Shown: positions 10,441 through 19,644 of the stretch, piece by piece
How positions within the stretch are numbered: position 1 is the first letter of the stretch
How the letters are laid out: each line of letters begins with the position of its first letter
Assembly (NCBI GenBank): GCA_965242925.1
Contig: CBDEUM010000020.1
Coordinates: forward strand, 1 to 28,047
Length of the DNA: 28,047 nucleotides
Direction of reading: 5' to 3'
Source of the DNA: Roseibacillus sp.
GTDB lineage: Bacteria; Verrucomicrobiota; Verrucomicrobiia; Verrucomicrobiales; Akkermansiaceae
Translations under genes and position numbers: made by a program
The notes under the pieces: generated by a model
Seen by the model: only the letters and a program-made list of their open reading frames with translations
What the model was told of the DNA's origin: nothing
Databases searched by the model: none

Positions 10441-13400
10441 CTACGGCGCCGCCGCGATAACTCTGACGTCATCAATGGATAATCCACTGAAAGAATCCAC
10501 GCTACCGTCACTGACGAAGTTCCATTCCACGAGAATCGTCTCTCCAAGAGCCCCGGCCGCGACGGGAATGGTGATGGTGAGATAGTCCGTGTCGAACACG
10601 CTCATGTCGATGGCGACATCCACTCCAAGCTGCACGTTGTCGACAGCACGAAGGAAACGCACCACCGCTGTGTCCCCGAAGCCATCCGCATCCCGGAAAG
10701 CGGCGAAGGAAAGCTCCGCGCCACTCACTCCAGTCAGGTCGATTGCAGGAGAACGAAGGGAGATATCAGAGTCGGAGAAATAGTCACCTAGGCCGGTGCA
10801 CCAGGCATTGGCAGATCCATCGGCCCCTTCGATCGGACCGGTGGAGCCATTAGGTGTCCCAAACTCCCACTGCGTATTCCCGTTGGCATCGTTCACCACC
10901 GTGGTCCACCCCCCCGTCCCTGACTCGAGATCGTCAAAGAAAAGAGGGGGAGCATTCTTCTCCCGGATTGCAACGAATCCCTTGCCCGGGAATGGCAGGG
11001 CGATGTCCAGCGTATTGGTGCCTGAGAGATCCGCGGGAATATTCTGCGCGTCCGCCAGACCGTCCCATGACTCCCTTGGCGAGGAAAGGTCCGCGTTGAT
11101 CAGAACGTCATAGACCTTCCCCGGCGTACTCGCCCAGGTGAGACGAAGCATGGTGGAGTCGAGCGGAGAATGGTCGACAGCCAGCTTGAGTTCGTCCCCG
11201 CCACTCCCGGAGGACACCTCAATCGAAAAGCCATAGGTCCGGGGAAGGTTGGCATGCCCGAAGCTGTCGAGGGTGTTTCCGATTACACCCGCCTCGTCAA
11301 CGTTGCCGCTGTTGGCATGGTCGGTAATACCGAAGCTGGTGTTGGTAATAATGCTGTTGGTCACTCCGAGAGCGTTGGTATTCTGAATTCCCGCCGCCAC
11401 TGTCGCTCCACCTTCCGGAATAGTGAAGACCGCCTCTTCCCCTCCGAAGGGAACCGCCCACTGAATGCCCGGTTCGGTGTCAATCGTCTCACCCACTGCC
11501 ACCACTGTGTGATTGGCAGGACCGTTCATAATGGTGAGGAAAGGAAAGACCGGCTGCGTAACACCGGCCATACCAGAGTCCGGAGCCGCATTGTAATTCC
11601 AGCTCCTGGCCTGGTAGGTCCCGGCCTCCAGAAACACCGTATCGGTGATATTGATGTTCTGCCGCATTTGGTTGTTACCGTTGGACTGGGTGTCCGTAAC
11701 CCCGGTCAGTTCCGGTCCGTAACCAATTGTGATGTAGCCGGGGCTGTTCGGGTCATTCGGATTGCTGCCCGATGCCACTTCGTCACCGTCCGGACGTCCG
11801 TCGCCGTCACTATCCGGATTCAGAGGATCCGTGCCGAGGGTGTCCTCCATCCCGTCAGAGAGGCCGTCATCGTCGCTGTCCGGATTGCCCGGATCGGTTC
11901 CGTTTGCAATCTCATCCGGGTCACTGATGCCATCATCATCGGAATCAGCCTCGGTGGGGTTGGTCCCGGCATTGTATTCCTCCAGGTCGGTGAGCCCGTC
12001 GTCATCGAAGTCGCCGGGGCCGAGCTGGCTCAGGTCCCCGGGGAAGTACTGCTCCTCGTAGCCGTCGGGGATGCTGTCGCCGTCACTGTCGATATTGGGA
12101 TCGAAGCTGTCGAGGTAGGCCCCCCAGCTCTGGCCGGCGCCGTCGGCGTCAAAGACCGCGGGAGCTCCGCTGCTGATTCCGAAGGCGCCGGCATAGCCGA
12201 TGCCGCCGAAGTCGGCGGTGTTGGAGGAGTTGCCATTGAAGTAGCCAAATCCGATGTCAGCGGCGGACTGGGCGCCGCCCCCGTCCTCGCTGAGCCAGAT
12301 ATCAACGTTGAACCAGCCGCCCCCGCCGAAATTGAAGTTGGCAAAAGTGCGGGCGTTCCAGCTCACATCGGTGTGCTGGGCGGACGCGCCGGTGGCATTC
12401 AGGTTACCGGAGCCGCCGATCGGGGTGGCTACGATCTTGACGCGATCGTCGTAGTTCTCGGTGAAGGAGAAAGTGCCGTCAGCATCATAGAACTGGAAGA
12501 TGAAGGCGAGGTCGTGGTTGTCCCCGGTGAGGTCGATGCCCCCGTTGCCCGGTTCCCGGTCCACATCAAGGGCGGAGATGAGACTGGAGTCGGGGTCGTC
12601 CGGATCCCCGAAGGGGGCGGCCTGATCGGCATTTTCGGGCAACGCCCCGGTGAAATCCGCTCCGGGCAGATTGTCGGTGCGGCGGTAGAGAATCCTTTCC
12701 GGATTGTGGGATGCCAGATCGATCTCCGGACGGGAATTGGGATCGGTGGGATCGAATCCGCCTGCAACCTCGATCCCGTCAGGGATCAAATCGTCGTCAC
12801 TGTCGGGGTCCAGGGGATCGGTGCCGGTGTTGTTGGCGTCAACGAATACACCGGTGCCAGTTTCCACTCCGTCAAGCAGGCCGTCGCCGTCGCTGTCAGG
12901 GTTGCCCGGTTCTGTGCCACCGGCGACTTCCGATCCATCGTTCACACCGTCTCCATCACTATCAGGGTCTTGTGGGTCAGTATCGCGCTCGAACTCCTCC
13001 GCATTGTTCAACCCGTCACTGTCGGGATCTCCGAGGGCTCCGTTAGGCCCGTCCCCGGCACCCGGAGCACTCTCTCCCGCTGTCCCGTCATCGTTATCGT
13101 CCAGGCCATTACCATCTTCCCAGTTGGCGGGAAGGCCGTCCCCGTCCTCGTCGGCCACAACCGCATCCTCCACCTCAATCGCGAAAGCGTAGGTGCGGGG
13201 AAGGTTGGCGTGGCCGAAGCTGTCGAGGGTGTTTCCGACTCCGCCCGCCTCGTCAAAGTTGCCGCTGTTGGCGTGGTCGGTAATACCGAAACTCGTATCG
13301 GTAAGGATGCTGTTCTGGACGCCGGTGGCATTGGTGTTCTGGACACCTGCCGCCACTGTCGCTCCCCCTATTGGAATAGTGAAGGTGTCGTCCGCCCCTC

Positions 13401-13755
13401 CAAAGGGCACCTCGGTCTGCACGCCGGGCTCCGTATCAATGGTATCACCGAAGGCCAGGACCGTGTGATTGGCCGGGCCATTGACGATCGTGAGAAAGGG
13501 GAAGACCGGTTGCGTCACACCCTGTGTAGCCGAGTCCGGAGCCGCATTGTATTCCCAGCTCGCGGCACGGTAGGTCCCCTCCGGAAGGAAGACCGTATCG
13601 GTGATGTTGATGTTCTGGCGCATCTGGTTGTTACCGTTGGACTGGGTGTCCTGGACGCCGTTGAGCGCGGTTCCGAAGCCTATCTTGATCGCGCCCGCGT
13701 CGCTCACTAGTGCGACGACGAGACAGGTGGTGAGGAGGGATTGTTTCTTAGACAT
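10441..13755 (-). CDS. Large secreted surface/adhesin-like protein (1104 aa): signal peptide, unknown domain copy 1, DxDxDG Ca-binding (bacterial TSP3-like) repeats, PA14-like domain, more repeats, unknown domain copy 2, C-terminal beta-rich domains
   Basis: Signal peptide MSKKQSLLTTCLVVALVSDAGA; many DSDxDG..D..E...GTDP repeats; internally repeated domain; C-terminal FFDDLESG..GW...W..G.P...SL.SP.IDL...GL.IDDV pattern seen in secreted proteins. Confidence 0.88.
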   Translation of the reverse strand: MSKKQSLLTTCLVVALVSDAGAIKIGFGTALNGVQDTQSNGNNQMRQNINITDTVFLPEGTYRAASWEYNAAPDSATQGVTQPVFPFLTIVNGPANHTVLAFGDTIDTEPGVQTEVPFGGADDTFTIPIGGATVAAGVQNTNATGVQNSILTDTSFGITDHANSGNFDEAGGVGNTLDSFGHANLPRTYAFAIEVEDAVVADEDGDGLPANWEDGNGLDDNDDGTAGESAPGAGDGPNGALGDPDSDGLNNAEEFERDTDPQDPDSDGDGVNDGSEVAGGTEPGNPDSDGDGLLDGVETGTGVFVDANNTGTDPLDPDSDDDLIPDGIEVAGGFDPTDPNSRPEIDLASHNPERILYRRTDNLPGADFTGALPENADQAAPFGDPDDPDSSLISALDVDREPGNGGIDLTGDNHDLAFIFQFYDADGTFSFTENYDDRVKIVATPIGGSGNLNATGASAQHTDVSWNARTFANFNFGGGGWFNVDIWLSEDGGGAQSAADIGFGYFNGNSSNTADFGGIGYAGAFGISSGAPAVFDADGAGQSWGAYLDSFDPNIDSDGDSIPDGYEEQYFPGDLSQLGPGDFDDDGLTDLEEYNAGTNPTEADSDDDGISDPDEIANGTDPGNPDSDDDGLSDGMEDTLGTDPLNPDSDGDGRPDGDEVASGSNPNDPNSPGYITIGYGPELTGVTDTQSNGNNQMRQNINITDTVFLEAGTYQARSWNYNAAPDSGMAGVTQPVFPFLTIMNGPANHTVVAVGETIDTEPGIQWAVPFGGEEAVFTIPEGGATVAAGIQNTNALGVTNSIITNTSFGITDHANSGNVDEAGVIGNTLDSFGHANLPRTYGFSIEVSSGSGGDELKLAVDHSPLDSTMLRLTWASTPGKVYDVLINADLSSPRESWDGLADAQNIPADLSGTNTLDIALPFPGKGFVAIREKNAPPLFFDDLESGTGGWTTVVNDANGNTQWEFGTPNGSTGPIEGADGSANAWCTGLGDYFSDSDISLRSPAIDLTGVSGAELSFAAFRDADGFGDTAVVRFLRAVDNVQLGVDVAIDMSVFDTDYLTITIPVAAGALGETILVEWNFVSDGSVDSFSGLSIDDVRVIAAAP
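11212..11735 (-). repeat. Second copy of the repeated domain in the large protein
   Basis: ITIGYGPELTGVTDTQSNGNNQMRQNINITDTV...FGHANLPRTYGFSIEV; boundaries approximate. Confidence 0.9.
13165..13690 (-). repeat. Copy of the ~170-aa repeated domain (N-terminal copy in the large protein)
   Basis: IKIGFGTALNGVQDTQSNGNNQMRQNINITDTV...FGHANLPRTYAFAIEV matches copies at ~11212-11735 and ~13960-14477; boundaries approximate. Confidence 0.9.
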
Positions 13756-14670: not shown

Positions 14671-17600
14671 ATGAACCGATTTGCCCCCACTGCCCTCGCC
14701 CTGCCCCTCTTGCTCTCCGCATGCCGGGATTCAGGGCAGAATACGGCCTCCCCCGTGCAAAACGGCGCCCCCGACGAGCTGCTTCAAGTCATTGTTCATC
14801 CGACCATCCGGCCCGAGCGACCGTCACTCATGCAAACTTCGGCGCTCCTGACAAAAAATACTTCGGAACTGCCTATTACTAAGGCAACCGCCCGGCACAC
14901 CGCTGCCGACCGGGAAGCGGCCAATTTGAGTGCCGAGGCAGCCGGATGGCACTCCGAGACCCGCGCCAGCCTTGCAATGCGACAATTGGGCAAACTGGCT
15001 GACAGCACGACCGAAGGCGCCCTCGCGACCCTGCTCGCGACTGACTTCTCGTGCCCCTCCCTGATCCCCGCCGATCTTGAAGAGATCACACTGCCCGGTG
15101 GAATCCGCATCATCAGGGGCACCAACTTCCAAGCAACGGCAGAGGGCCTCTTCTCCGAACTCTCCCGACTGCGTAAGCGCATCAGCAGTGGAGATCAGTC
15201 GGCGCTCCGCTTCAAACCGGTGGGGATTGAAACCGATGCTACCGGAGAGAACTTCACCACCGAAGTCCTGGTCGAAGTGGTGGCCCTGGAGAGTGCGTCC
15301 CAGATCGATGCCTCCTGGCGTTGTTCATGGACTGGGGAGGAAGAACCAAGGCTGACCAACCTCACCGTGACCGGGTTCCGCGAGGTGCACGCGCCGAATC
15401 CTCTCTTCGCGGATGCCACCCGGAGCGCCTTTCGCCAAACTCCCTCTTTCGCGCAGCAGATGATGTCCGGGATCGGATCCTGGTCTCAGCACCTGACGAG
15501 GGTTGATGACATGGCGCTCACCGGCCACCATGGAGTGGCGGTGGGCGACATCAACGGGGATGGCCGCGACGACCTCTATGCCTGCGACGGTGGCGGCCTG
15601 CCCAATCGCCTCTATGTTCAGCAGGCCGACGGCACCGTCCGCGACCGCTCCGCAGAAGCGCAGGTCGACTTCCTGGAAGACACCCGCAGTGCACTGATCA
15701 TCGATCTGGACAACGATGGTGACCAGGACCTGGTCGTGGGCACCGTTGCCCTGGTTCTCTTCCTGGAAAATGACGGCACAGGAGTGTTTGCCCTGCGCGG
15801 GGGCCACCCGGGCTCGCCCGGTCCCTACTCCATGGCGGCTGCCGACTACGACAATGACGGTGACCTCGACGTCTACGTGACCGGTTACGGCCAGCACCGT
15901 GATGGCGGGGGAGGCCGGGGCTTCGAGGCCAGCGCTCCCATCCCCTACCACGACGCCAACAACGGCGGACGCAACCTCCTCCTCGCCAATCATGGACAGT
16001 TTCGTTTCTCCGACGTGACTGCCCGGACCGGGCTCGATCAAAACAACACCCGCTGGTCCTTCGCCGCGGCCTGGGAGGACTATGATCGCGATGGGGACAG
16101 TGATCTCTACGTGGTCAATGACTTCGGGAGAAACAACCTTTACCGCAACGAGGGTGGCACCTTCCGCGACATCGCAGCCGAGGCAGGGGTGGAAGATATG
16201 GCGGGAGGAATGTCGGCGGGTTGGGGCGACGCCAACGGAGATGGCAAACCGGATCTCTACGTCGGCAACATGTTCTCGGCGGCCGGCAACCGCGTCACCT
16301 ACCAGCGCCGCTTCCAGGATGCTCGCACTGCTGGTGACAGCACCGCCCTGCAACGCATGGCCCGGGGAAACAGTCTCTTCCATCAGGAAGCGGACGGGAC
16401 CTTCCGGGACGTCAGCGAGGACTCCGGGGTCACCATGGGGCGCTGGGCGTGGAGCTCCGGATTTGTCGATCTGAACAATGACGGCTGGCAGGATCTGGTA
16501 GTCAGCAACGGCTACCTTTCCAGCCCCAGCACCGAAGATCTCTGAAGTTTCTTCTGGCGGCAGGTCGTGTCGCCCTCCCCGGTCAACGCACAGGACCAAA
16601 AGAGTATTGAACGCTACACCGCCTCCTGGGCCGCCCTCATGCAGCAGGTCCGCAGGGGAGCCTCCTGGAGTGGATACGAACGCAACTGCTCCTTCCTCAA
16701 CACCGGCGGCAGGTTTGTGGGTGCCTCGCATGTGAGTGGCCTCGATTTCCCGGATGACGGACGCGGACTGGCCGTCACGGACTGGGACCAGGACGGCGAC
16801 CTGGACCTCTGGTTCAGCAATCGCACCGCTCCACGCCTGCGCCTCATGCTCAATCAATCCTCCCGGCAACGCCCCGCGCAGCATATCGCCTTCCGGCTCG
16901 TGGGAAGCGAGTGCAACCGCGATGCGATTGGAGCGGTGGTCGAACTACACCTGGAGGACTCGGGGGGACCGGCCCCGCGTCTGGTGCGTTCCGTCCGTGC
17001 CGGAGACCTCTTCCTCTCGCAGTCGAGCAAGTGGATTCATTTCGGAGTGCCCGAAAACGCCACCGTGGCGTCCGTTTCGGTCCTCTGGCCCGGTGGGTCG
17101 CGCAGCAGCTGTTCCGATATCACCGTCGGTCAGCGATATCTCCTTTGCCAGGGAGAGCCTTCCGCTCTACAGGAATCCGGCCGTCATCCCCGCCGGGTGA
17201 GCCTGGATACCGCCCCGCTGGCCACTGTCAACACATCCCCCGGGCAGGTCTCGCTGGTCCTGCCCGCCCCCATCCGGTTGCCCCTCTCCTCCTACCACCA
17301 CTCCAGTGGTTCCGAAGTTGCCCTCCCTCTCGCGGAAACAGCCCGCCTCATCCTCTTCTGGTCAGCCCACTGTCCTCACTGCCACGAGGAACTCAAACGC
17401 CTGGCCGCGAATCCTCCCGGGGTGAACGTCCTGGCCCTCTGTGTCGACGGTAGGACCAAGCCCGCTCGCGAGGTCGCCCGGTCGACCCTTTCCGGGGTCG
17501 GCTACACCGCTTCGTGGGGAATGGTGGGAGCTGCCGAACTCGAACGCTTGCACCTTCTTCAGGAGTCCCTCTTCGATTCCACTCCCCCTTTTGCCGTTCC

Positions 17601-18165
17601 CTTCTCACTCCTAGTCCGGTCGGACAACCAGATCGTGGCGATCTACCGTGGCGCCCTTTCGCTCCCGGTTCTTGCCCACGACACCCGGTATGTGGTCCCC
17701 GCCCCGGACCAGCAACTGCGGAATCTCGCCCCTCCTTTCCCCGGTCGCTGGTTCACCAACCCCGTCGGCCCCACCTTCCTTCCCCTTCTCGTTGCCCGGC
17801 GCAACCTGGCCCGCTATCCGGAAGAAGCCCTCCTCTATCTCCAGCAGGCCGCGGAAGATTCAGTCGAGAGCGAGAGGTCCGATCTCATGACCGAGCTGGG
17901 ACGTCGGCACTACCTCCTGGCCGCCGAATTCGCAACCAGTCAACTTTTTGAGAAGTCAGACTACCACTATCAGAAATCTCTGGCCGCCGTTCCCCACAAC
18001 CCATCCGTGCACAACGACTTCGGCGCGTCCCTGGCACAAAGGGGAAAACTGCGGGAAGGCGCACAGCATTTCCGGGAAGCGCTCCGCCTGAAACCTGACT
18101 TCCCCCTCGCCAGAGAGAATCTATCCAAGGTGGAAGAACTGCTGAAACAAGCGGGTGAACGATGA
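14671..18165 (+). CDS. Candidate selenoprotein: lipoprotein with FG-GAP/VCBS repeats, ASPIC-UnbV domain (CRTAC1-like), TlpA-like CPHC redoxin domain and TPRs; 1164 aa with TGA at codon 625 read as Sec
   Basis: Lipobox LLLSAC; DxxxDGxxDL repeats continue on both sides of the in-frame TGA at 16543-16545 (...SSPSTEDL-U-SFFWRQVVSPSP...DWDQDGDLDL). These are followed by NRDAIGAVV...FLSQSS..IHFG...V.WP.G (ASPIC/UnbV), FWSAHCPHCHEEL and a TPR tail (HNDFGASLAQRGK..E...HFREALRLKPDF..ARENL). Confidence 0.8.
16543..16574 (+). promoter_or_regulatory. Putative bacterial SECIS hairpin of the FG-GAP/ASPIC gene
   Basis: TGA + 10 nt (AGTTTCTTCT) + GGCGGCA-GGTCG-TGTCGCC (16556-16574): 7-bp stem with one G-U pair and a G-starting apical loop, at the spacing expected for a bacterial SECIS. 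Confidence 0.7.
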
Positions 18166-18390: not shown

Positions 18391-19644
18391 ATGAAGATCG
18401 CTCTCATCGTCCTGCCTGTTCTCGTTCTTGCCAGTTCAAACCCTGTGCCCGCCCGCGAAGCCAAGGAACTGGACAACGACATTAACTACGACGACCGAAA
18501 AACCCCGCACTACGACCTGCCTCCTCTTCTCGTCACTACGCAGGGCCGGAAAATAACCACTGCCGAGGAGTGGCGCAGCGTCCGCCGTCCCGAGATTCTT
18601 TCCCTCTTCAGCAACCTGGTCTATGGGAGAATTCCCCAGCCCTCCACTCCCCTGAAGATCGAATTTGAAGTGTCCAGAACCGACTCCGGTTTCATGAAGG
18701 GCCGCGCCACGCGGAAAGACATCAGGATTCATCTCAGCAACAAGAACGGGCGCATGTCGATGCATGTGCTCGTATTCACACCCAACAAGTCGCCCCGACC
18801 CGTTCCATGCTTCCTCAAGCACAGCTTCCAGAACACCCGGGAAGACGATTTTGACGCTGCAATTCTCCGTCCCGGCAAACTGAAGAATGGCTGGCCCCTG
18901 GGAGAGTTCCTTGATCGTGGTTACGGCTTTTGTGCGGTGTATCACGAGGACCTCATCCGCCACAACGAAGTCGAGTTTCTCCACAGCATCCACAAGCTCT
19001 TCTACCCTGCGGGCCAGAGCTTCCCCAAGGCGCATGAGTGGGGTGTCATTTCCACCTGCGCATGGGGGGCTATGCGTGCAATGGACTATCTCGAAACCGA
19101 TCAGGACATCGACCACACCCGCGTGGCGGTGATGGGCCACTCCAAGATGGGAAAGACCGCTCTCTGGACTGCGGCCCAGGATGAACGTTTCGCCCTGGCA
19201 ATATCCGCCCAGTCAGGTTGTGCGGGAGCGGCCCTCTGGCGCCGCAAGTCAGGTGAAACACTCAAGAAGATGGTCACCCGCTTCCCCTACTGGCTCTGCC
19301 GCAACGCGTGGAAGTTCGTCGACCAGGAAGACGATCTTCCCGTGGACCAGCATATGCTCCTGGCCTGCATCGCACCCCGTCCCGTCTACGTGCACAGCAG
19401 CGTGAAAGACACCTGGGCCGACCCCCGGGGCGAATACCTCTCCGCCTACCACGCGGGTGAAGTGTACCGTCTCCTGGGCCAGAAGACGCTCCTGATGGAA
19501 GAACGCTCTCCGCCCGTAGGCAAAGCCTTCATAGAAAGCCAAGTCGGCTACCACCTCCGGGACGGCGGCCATTCCATCGAAAAATACGATTGGGAGCGCT
19601 TCCTGGAATTCGCGGATTTCCATCTGAAGCCAAAGGATCCGTGA
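18391..19644 (+). CDS. Secreted carbohydrate esterase family 15 (glucuronoyl esterase-like) alpha/beta hydrolase
   Basis: Signal peptide; W...RRPEI..F...VYG, WG.I..AWG..RA.DYLE, nucleophile elbow GHSKMGK, SGC.GAAL.RR..GE, LPVDQH.L.A.IAPRP, D.WADP.GE and GGH motifs. Confidence 0.85.
   Translation: MKIALIVLPVLVLASSNPVPAREAKELDNDINYDDRKTPHYDLPPLLVTTQGRKITTAEEWRSVRRPEILSLFSNLVYGRIPQPSTPLKIEFEVSRTDSGFMKGRATRKDIRIHLSNKNGRMSMHVLVFTPNKSPRPVPCFLKHSFQNTREDDFDAAILRPGKLKNGWPLGEFLDRGYGFCAVYHEDLIRHNEVEFLHSIHKLFYPAGQSFPKAHEWGVISTCAWGAMRAMDYLETDQDIDHTRVAVMGHSKMGKTALWTAAQDERFALAISAQSGCAGAALWRRKSGETLKKMVTRFPYWLCRNAWKFVDQEDDLPVDQHMLLACIAPRPVYVHSSVKDTWADPRGEYLSAYHAGEVYRLLGQKTLLMEERSPPVGKAFIESQVGYHLRDGGHSIEKYDWERFLEFADFHLKPKDP

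Follow-up and report, generated by a model that had tools for sequence, protein, structure and literature searches.

This work concerns one gene in a 28,047-nucleotide (nt) stretch of DNA from Roseibacillus sp. (assembly GCA_965242925.1, contig CBDEUM010000020.1, positions 1 to 28,047; hereafter the window), which lies on the forward strand at 14671-18165 and very probably encodes a single selenoprotein. Conventional gene calling sees two open reading frames (ORFs) here, 14671-16545 (624 amino acids) and 16567-18165 (532 amino acids, GTG start). Both share the same frame, and between them lie only a TGA at 16543-16545 and seven stop-free codons (SFFWRQV). When the TGA is read through, the frame comprises 1164 codons with this single in-frame TGA, and it is ended by a second TGA at 18163. 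Residue 625 then stands in the context STEDL-U-SFFWRQVV, in which U symbolizes selenocysteine (Sec). A first-pass annotation, made from the letters alone, had described this frame, the TGA and the stop-free in-frame codons that join the two ORFs, and coordinates and frame are indeed as it described them. It had also placed the Sec outside any CxxU motif, and there is no such motif at the site, the closest cysteine being residue 673.

The TGA is shared by a whole group of related genes. A search with residues 431-900 against 61 related genomes (E <= 1e-40) gave matches in 29 of them, among which are 18 of the 19 further genomes from this genus, and among the matches listed every single one contains exactly one in-frame TGA, with 63 further matches existing beyond those listed. 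When loci from this search and from public genome contigs were matched by motif, 90 of 91 had the TGA in the same column (DL-TGA-SFFWRQVV) and one had TCG (Ser). These loci stem from Roseibacillus, Akkermansiaceae, other Verrucomicrobiota, Pirellulales, other Planctomycetota, Acidobacteriota, Thermoanaerobaculia and one Myxococcales metagenome-assembled genome (MAG), and the closest relative, with 93% identity, is an Akkermansiaceae MAG. Matches were present in 24 genomes of a sample of 101 Acidobacteriota, a tally that takes in two unpublished genomes (G112 and G087); 23 of the 30 matches have one TGA, one has a TGA and a TAG, and six have none. Over 97 distinct sites, the stop at this position is always TGA and never TAA or TAG. 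The focal genome itself (42 contigs, 4.58 Mb, 89.9% complete) contains at least 11 TGA-bearing paralogues, ten recognized by the peptide motif and one more by the RNA model described below, and 13 matches were counted there in the search with residues 431-900. Two TGA-type paralogues lie less than 14 kb apart on opposite strands of one contig (G000:C13:132387 and C13:146637), and similar pairs occur in relatives, e.g. on G002:C19 and G014:C20.

A trivial explanation would be a recent nonsense mutation or an assembly error in a cysteine codon (TGC or TGT to TGA), which would render the gene a pseudogene, and the closest uninterrupted homologues do have Cys at this position, a single base change away from TGA. 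However, the column conservation extends over four phyla, contigs from the sequencing runs of other studies also have the TGA, no difference being listed for 16543-16545, and elsewhere the frame is undamaged. This excludes an assembly error as well as a nonsense mutation confined to this genome, the pseudogene explanation is refuted by conservation and has practically no probability left, and the TGA is not peculiar to this assembly, as the first-pass annotation had considered it might be.

What do relatives without the TGA have at this position? From the 120 best database matches taken as uninterrupted homologues, 118 align across residue 625, and these have Asn (56), Ser (14), Ala (10), Cys (9), Asp (8), His (5), Glu (5), Gly (4), Gln (2) or Tyr (2), while Arg, Met and Ile occur once each. 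The closest of them, with about 57% identity, have Cys (DLCSFFWRQVV), and therefore the Sec/Cys pairing that is expected of a selenoprotein is present. The tabulation of site residues, which had been suggested as a check, thus speaks for the selenoprotein in so far as Cys occurs and is the residue of the closest homologues, and speaks against it in so far as Asn is the commonest. Protein databases favor the uninterrupted forms, as genes with the TGA are cut into two entries there and are not covered by the length window of the search.

Ten nt past the TGA, exactly where the first-pass annotation had seen it, begins a hairpin of the selenocysteine insertion sequence (SECIS) type (16556-16574, forward strand), which consists of a stem of 7 base pairs (bp; GGCGGCA/TGTCGCC) and a 5-nt loop (GGTCG). 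Its significance comes from the comparison with relatives and not from its energy. We compared 97 distinct TGA sites with 13 TGA-less ones; the figures that follow are restricted to the 76 TGA genes and 12 TGA-less genes that encode an identical WRQVV. The first Val codon of this peptide is GTC in 74 of 76 TGA genes, as compared with GTG in five, GTC in three, GTT in three and GTA in one of the 12 TGA-less genes, and the second is GTG in all 76 TGA genes, as compared with GTG in nine, GTC in two and GTT in one of the TGA-less genes. A hairpin of -6 kcal/mol or better is formed in 75/76 TGA genes and in 4/12 TGA-less genes. There is thus a synonymous-site constraint over the hairpin in TGA genes that is not seen in their TGA-less relatives.

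The base pairs of the stem covary. In an ungapped alignment of 97 rows (93 distinct; one row, L128, from an unpublished genome), 90.3% of the 651 cells of the 7-bp helix are paired, and sliding the 3' partner by one to three columns cuts the pairing to 27-73%. The middle pair (columns 18-28) is realized as GU (41), AU (29), CG (17), GC (2) or UG (1), and its CG form is only possible if the encoded protein has Ala in place of Ser. The covariation score of 0.171, compared with 0.077 in shuffled alignments, was reached by none of 500 shuffles. When the 4.58-Mb genome was searched with a covariance model built from this alignment, nine matches had E <= 0.01, each of them at a TGA site of the family, although the model also carries the coding-sequence conservation and has the focal sequence among its rows.

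Some further observations concern this region. An acidobacterial subgroup (L133-L141, L150 and L153) has DT-TGA-S[LIF]FWRHVVA at the site and a hairpin of other letters (GGCGCCAC GTG GTGGC...) whose loop is not GGUCG. In metagenome contigs of several studies, the summed depth is about 10-30-fold higher over 16518-16591 only (e.g. from 5 to 178 in X2), many metagenome contigs match from the TGA onward for just about 30-42 nt, and the contigs of the organism itself end near 16572. The block of TGA and hairpin is a short repeat that recurs in many paralogues and in other organisms. Because contigs end at this repeat near 16572, none of them bridges the TGA with 31 letters on both sides, and the contigs from RNA libraries accordingly show no transcript across it.

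One might argue that the UGA at 16543 simply stops translation, giving a 624-amino-acid propeller fragment by programmed termination or as the product of a first gene, and that the hairpin serves translational coupling or re-initiation at the GTG at 16567, from which a separate protein of 532 amino acids would be made. Translation table 11 does yield two ORFs, the GTG is only 22 nt past the TGA, and a footnote to S9 Table of Kim et al. 2016 (PMC4807772) states that candidates of such a type are annotated as two genes. But the break lies inside one propeller domain. DxDxDG-type repeats flank the TGA on both sides (DLNNDG upstream, DWDQDGD downstream), and in an AlphaFold model of the full-length protein, computed from a 68-row alignment in which Cys was put at the site, the strands of a further propeller blade come after the site. 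This model is one confident chain with a mean predicted local distance difference test score (pLDDT) of 90.8 and a predicted template modelling score (pTM) of 0.91. The suggestion that the TGA interrupts a single continuous domain is therefore well founded. Moreover, uninterrupted homologues have a sense codon in the TGA column, SFFWRQV between the ORFs is the most conserved peptide of the region among homologues, the stop at the site is TGA in every case, and the second part lacks a signal peptide of its own, as noted already in the first-pass annotation, though the protein is predicted to be exported. We therefore regard two separate products as very improbable.

Several parts of the machinery for selenocysteine incorporation were found in the genome. 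It contains a tRNA-Sec (59 bits, cut-off 47), which is classified by ARAGORN as SeC with anticodon tca, a SelB, and a selD (G000:C14:573853-574776, locus L010; 366.6 bits to TIGR00476) that contains one in-frame TGA, so that SelD of this genome is probably a selenoprotein too. Of the 19 further genomes from this genus, 18 contain SelA. Among the 18 sampled Acidobacteriota in which a TGA-type gene occurs, 17 possess SelA, while in the remaining one (G144) SelB (293.9 bits) and tRNA-Sec (76.2 bits) are present. This agrees with the selenoprotein reading, but SelA is uninformative as a discriminator in this phylum, because 83 of the 101 sampled genomes have it regardless. In one acidobacterial genome, a TGA-type member is followed on its own strand, after 479 nt, by a selA at 1156960-1158321 (G084:C1:1154370-1158321, L134 and downstream region).

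Could the UGA be recoded to something other than Sec? A suppressor or near-cognate tRNA for Trp, Cys or Gly might be helped by the hairpin, or UGA might be reassigned in the lineage as a whole, and the SelA that was not found in the 89.9%-complete assembly would fit such a scenario. Against this stand the tRNA-Sec, SelB and SelD of the genome, the Cys of the closest uninterrupted homologues, and the restriction to exactly one TGA per family member among the matches listed. A general reassignment of TGA is excluded, as TGA is the ordinary stop of three of seven Pfam-supported neighbor genes as well as of the focal gene, and none of these neighbors has an internal stop. Recoding to another amino acid is thus highly unlikely.

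The conserved TGA, the covarying SECIS-type hairpin and the Sec machinery in the genome together indicate one selenoprotein gene, as the first-pass annotation had proposed, and we consider it highly probable that UGA 16543-16545 is a genuine selenocysteine codon, a judgment that is based on sequence comparison. Several observations weigh against this. SelA was not found in the focal genome with PF03841 and TIGR00474, in an assembly that is 89.9% complete; given its presence in 18 of 19 congeners, we tentatively attribute this to assembly incompleteness. The folding energy of the hairpin is unremarkable (z = 0.26; 112 of 200 shuffles fold as well or better) and was therefore rejected as evidence. 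No Rfam family matches the hairpin, the sole Rfam match being a 12.8-bit chance match. Two TGA-less genes, L120:4233 with Ser (TCG) and L127:2913 with Glu (GAG), keep the hairpin sequence CAGGTCGTG with the flanking stem, and the hairpin sequence alone therefore does not prove function; judged by their sequences, these two look like recent losses of Sec. Finally, Asn occupies the site in 56/118 uninterrupted homologues, and most of these have neither Cys nor Sec, which means that residue 625 is dispensable for the fold and for the role of those forms. Large clades replace it by non-redox residues, which is unusual for a catalytic Sec.

As far as the decoding of the UGA as Sec is concerned, the mechanism would be the standard bacterial one. 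The fdhF-type SECIS of E. coli is a short hairpin within the coding sequence, about 10-11 nt past the in-frame UGA, with a G/U-containing apical loop, and it functions in dependence on SelB. The focal gene resembles this arrangement in having a hairpin 10 nt past its UGA and in the tRNA-Sec, SelB and SelD encoded by its genome, whereas the host gene is unrelated to fdhF, and the focal stem has 7 bp with a 5-nt GGUCG loop. The GGUC of this loop presumably has a counterpart in the E. coli fdhF SECIS. SelB with Sec-tRNA(Sec) would bind the mRNA hairpin at 16556-16574, whereupon selenocysteine would be inserted at UGA 16543-16545, and the second TGA at 18163, which is not followed by such a hairpin, would terminate translation. 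Unusual are the place of the Sec, which caps a helix within a CRTAC1-like propeller and lies outside a CxxU motif, and a possible partnership with a CxxC motif elsewhere in the same protein.

The predicted product is an exported, lipid-anchored selenoprotein of about 125 kDa. Its N-terminus, as read from the translation, is a putative signal peptide (14671-14724) with a lipobox L-S-A-C (LLLSAC, Cys18); the lipobox Cys is present in 32 of the 58 Sec-type homologues that align there, and residues 1-34 form a disordered signal and linker region of low pLDDT in the model. An alpha/beta domain follows (residues ~78-271, 14902-15483), which is defined by its secondary structure at pLDDT values above 84; no Pfam family matches residues 1-280. 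The FG-GAP beta-propeller (residues ~285-745, 15523-16905) is recognized by Pfam FG-GAP_3 (136.7 bits in five stretches, cut-off 26.9) and FG-GAP, and it is succeeded by a UnbV_ASPIC domain (residues 752-823, 16924-17139; 48.2 bits, cut-off 23.4). In a Foldseek search, the best solved match of the full-length model was murine CRTAC1 (9etn_A, E 1.4e-22, TM-score, i.e. template modelling score, of 0.70 on the target), and phmmer relates the focal protein to CRTAC1 with an E of 1.1e-13. Both proteins share the FG-GAP propeller and the ASPIC/UnbV domain, but at 16% identity, and CRTAC1 is not known to have a Sec or a fused thioredoxin-fold or TPR domain. The C-terminus is formed by TPR-like helical repeats (residues ~1036-1163, 17776-18159), which are helical in the model and match the TPR region of OGT in a phmmer search of the PDB (E 2.7e-16), while Pfam TPR_11 and TPR_2 remained below cut-off.

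Between the UnbV_ASPIC domain and the TPR-like repeats lies a thioredoxin-fold domain (residues ~860-1008, 17248-17694). Redoxin-type Pfam families score below cut-off in the focal protein (AhpC-TSA 15.8 bits, cut-off 26; Redoxin 12.4 bits, cut-off 26.6), while many of its homologues carry precomputed PF00578 or PF08534 matches. Folded alone on the basis of an 83-row alignment, the domain gave a model with a pLDDT of 92.6, whose best Foldseek match was ResA (1st9_A, E 3.2e-8, TM-score 0.77 on the target), followed by TlpA (4txv, 1jfu) and CcmG (1kng), with E-values of 3.2e-8 to 6e-6 overall. As in these proteins, a CxxC stands at the start of helix 1; in the focal protein it is CPHC (residues 901-904, 17371-17382, at the start of helix 902-913 of the model), and a nearly invariant Pro977 precedes strand 3. 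The fused TlpA-like CPHC domain of the first-pass annotation is thus corroborated. ResA, TlpA and CcmG are separate membrane-anchored proteins, whereas here the domain is fused to a propeller, and among the Foldseek matches a CPHC occurs only in an engineered ResA variant (3c71).

With respect to the Sec site, the first-pass annotation had assumed a loop of a CRTAC1-like propeller. The propeller holds true, the loop does not, as helix 625-633, which comes after strand 620-623, starts with residue 625 and is capped by it. A position at the start of a helix is typical of reactive Cys or Sec residues. The N-terminal alpha/beta domain precedes the CRTAC1-like propeller with its UnbV/ASPIC domain, the ResA/TlpA-like domain with CPHC and the TPR repeats. 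Sec625, at the head of this helix inserted in the propeller, could be imagined as the reactive residue of a redox site outside the cytoplasm, recycled by the CxxC domain of the same chain. In such a constellation, Sec625 would form a selenenylsulfide with Cys901, this would be resolved by Cys904, and the substrate would be held by the propeller together with the TPR repeats. We put this function forward tentatively; a contact between Sec625 and CPHC and an electron transfer between them are possible, but we would not call them probable.

The distribution of cysteines in a 190-row alignment bears on this idea. The first motif cysteine, Cys901, occurs in all 79 Sec forms, in none of 50 Asn forms, in 4/6 Cys forms and in 15/48 other forms; for the second, Cys904, the counts are 76/79 (Sec), 31/50 (Asn), 4/7 (Cys) and 33/48 (other). 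Asn forms mostly have SxxC in place of CxxC. Cys673, within the peptide ERNC and encoded at 16687-16689, occurs in all seven Cys forms, in 46/79 Sec forms and in 11/50 other forms but in none of 54 Asn forms, and may be a local partner of Sec625, if the sequence pattern is taken as a guide. On a FastTree tree of 208 rows, in which the site was masked and rows from unpublished genomes were left out, seven independent contrasts are supported, and in these the CxxC changes in the same way as the Sec about 3.5 times, never in the opposite way, and remains unchanged about 3.5 times. The raw association is striking and suggestive of a coupling between Sec and CxxC, which it does not demonstrate. Column-wise mutual information with the Sec/Cys state was not used, as clade signal dominates it (top columns K182, 420, C901 and 597). 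The column most associated with the Sec/Cys state is Lys182 in the N-terminal domain (15214-15216), which may be clade signal only; Lys is found there in 76 of 86 Sec or Cys forms, and among the 104 others Gln (58) and Glu (26) occur.

Four results count against the recycling idea. Under phylogenetic control, the association of Sec with CxxC is not significant (median p 0.125 with seven contrasts). CxxC is also present in His forms (4/4), Tyr forms (2/2), Ser forms (6/13 with a thioredoxin match) and Gly forms. The dipeptide of the motif varies among Sec forms (CPHC 21, CGTC 5, CEHC 5, CAPC 4, and others). Lastly, no redox partner recurs among the 79 ORFs that flank related loci, where DUF1501 was found four times, DUF1552 twice, a paralogue twice and a redoxin once. 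It is also conceivable that the Sec is real and has nothing to do with the fused CxxC. It could be a metal ligand, a sensor of peroxide or electrophiles, or the partner of Cys673 in a local selenenylsulfide, with the ResA/TlpA-like domain serving other substrates. The missing significance and the CxxC in forms with neither Sec nor Cys at the site would agree with this, as would the retention of the second Cys in 31/50 Asn forms and the enrichment of Cys673 in Sec and Cys forms. However, the complete presence of Cys901 in Sec forms and its complete absence from Asn forms speak against it, as does the lack of any contrast in which the CxxC changes in the opposite direction, and 33 of the 79 Sec forms do without Cys673. 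We give this independent Sec close to an even chance. The first-pass annotation had envisaged a self-contained redox enzyme of the envelope. In its fullest form, as a self-contained selenol-dithiol redox machine outside the cytoplasm whose catalytic Sec caps a helix of the CRTAC1-like propeller and is recycled by the protein's own CxxC domain, in a family expanded beyond ten paralogues per genome in marine Verrucomicrobiota and Planctomycetota, this idea is, on present grounds, rather unlikely, albeit worth considering.

The genomic surroundings point to no further component. Neighbors in the window are ilvB/ilvN-like genes, a gene for a TSP3-repeat protein, one for a glucuronyl-esterase-like protein, and carA. 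The gene that flanks on one side (10441-13755, reverse strand) encodes a 1104-amino-acid protein with bacterial TSP3 repeats, and that on the other side (18391-19644, forward strand) matches the fungal glucuronyl-esterase family; both products are likely secreted. The focal gene stands alone, its neighbors being housekeeping genes or genes for unrelated secreted proteins. No tRNA genes were found in the window.

Is this family known? S9 Table of Kim et al. 2016 (PLoS One, PMC4807772) contains four Planctomycetes candidates of the same domain family, in each of which an in-frame UGA separates two annotated genes. A SECIS is predicted for three of the four, and the residue of the closest hit is given as Gly. 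Within this table, the candidates are bare rows without an alignment, a structure or a distribution analysis, and in distinction to them the gene treated here is from a marine verrucomicrobium and has been examined with respect to site, hairpin covariation, paralogue expansion and fold. The table also includes a 'thiol-disulfide isomerase-like thioredoxin' and peroxiredoxin candidates with Sec in the redox motif. The focal protein resembles these thioredoxin-fold selenoproteins of the table in being a putative exported redox protein in which Sec is paired with Cys homologues; in those proteins, however, Sec replaces a Cys of the CxxC or the peroxidatic Cys, whereas the focal CxxC keeps both of its cysteines and the Sec lies 276 residues upstream in another domain. 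In the full-text literature, we found nothing relevant that joins selenoprotein or selenocysteine with FG-GAP, ASPIC, VCBS or UnbV. The main text of a 2026 review of prokaryotic selenoproteomes (PMC13188914) does not mention FG-GAP, ASPIC, CRTAC, VCBS or propeller, and the main text and one supplementary file of the BSepDB paper (PMC13326102) contain none of these words, although both may use another name. At the level of titles listed, the CRTAC1 literature offers no functional lead for the bacterial proteins. In the parts of the catalogues that were searched, the family is hence not named, and it appears as unanalysed candidates in one supplementary table from 2016. Although widespread and expanded, this selenoprotein family has hardly been documented so far.

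Gene callers split these genes, so that databases contain halves and searches are dominated by the uninterrupted Asn, Ser and Cys forms. Once the UGA is read correctly, a large family emerges that numbers more than ten members in some genomes, and the number of selenoproteins counted for common marine Verrucomicrobiota, Planctomycetota and Acidobacteriota would be multiplied. The family would give selenium a function on the cell surface of heterotrophic aerobes, and it represents a rare case of a Sec outside a CxxU-type motif, in a propeller that is usually seen as adhesin-like and beside a fused thiol-disulfide oxidoreductase domain. This combination of Sec and CxxC in one polypeptide makes a redox function of bacterial CRTAC1-like proteins testable. 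If the self-contained redox machine should exist, these aerobic heterotrophs would carry some of the largest single-family selenoproteomes known and would need selenium for redox chemistry at their cell surface, and the Asn forms of soil bacteria would have been derived by a joint loss of the Sec and of the attacking cysteine.

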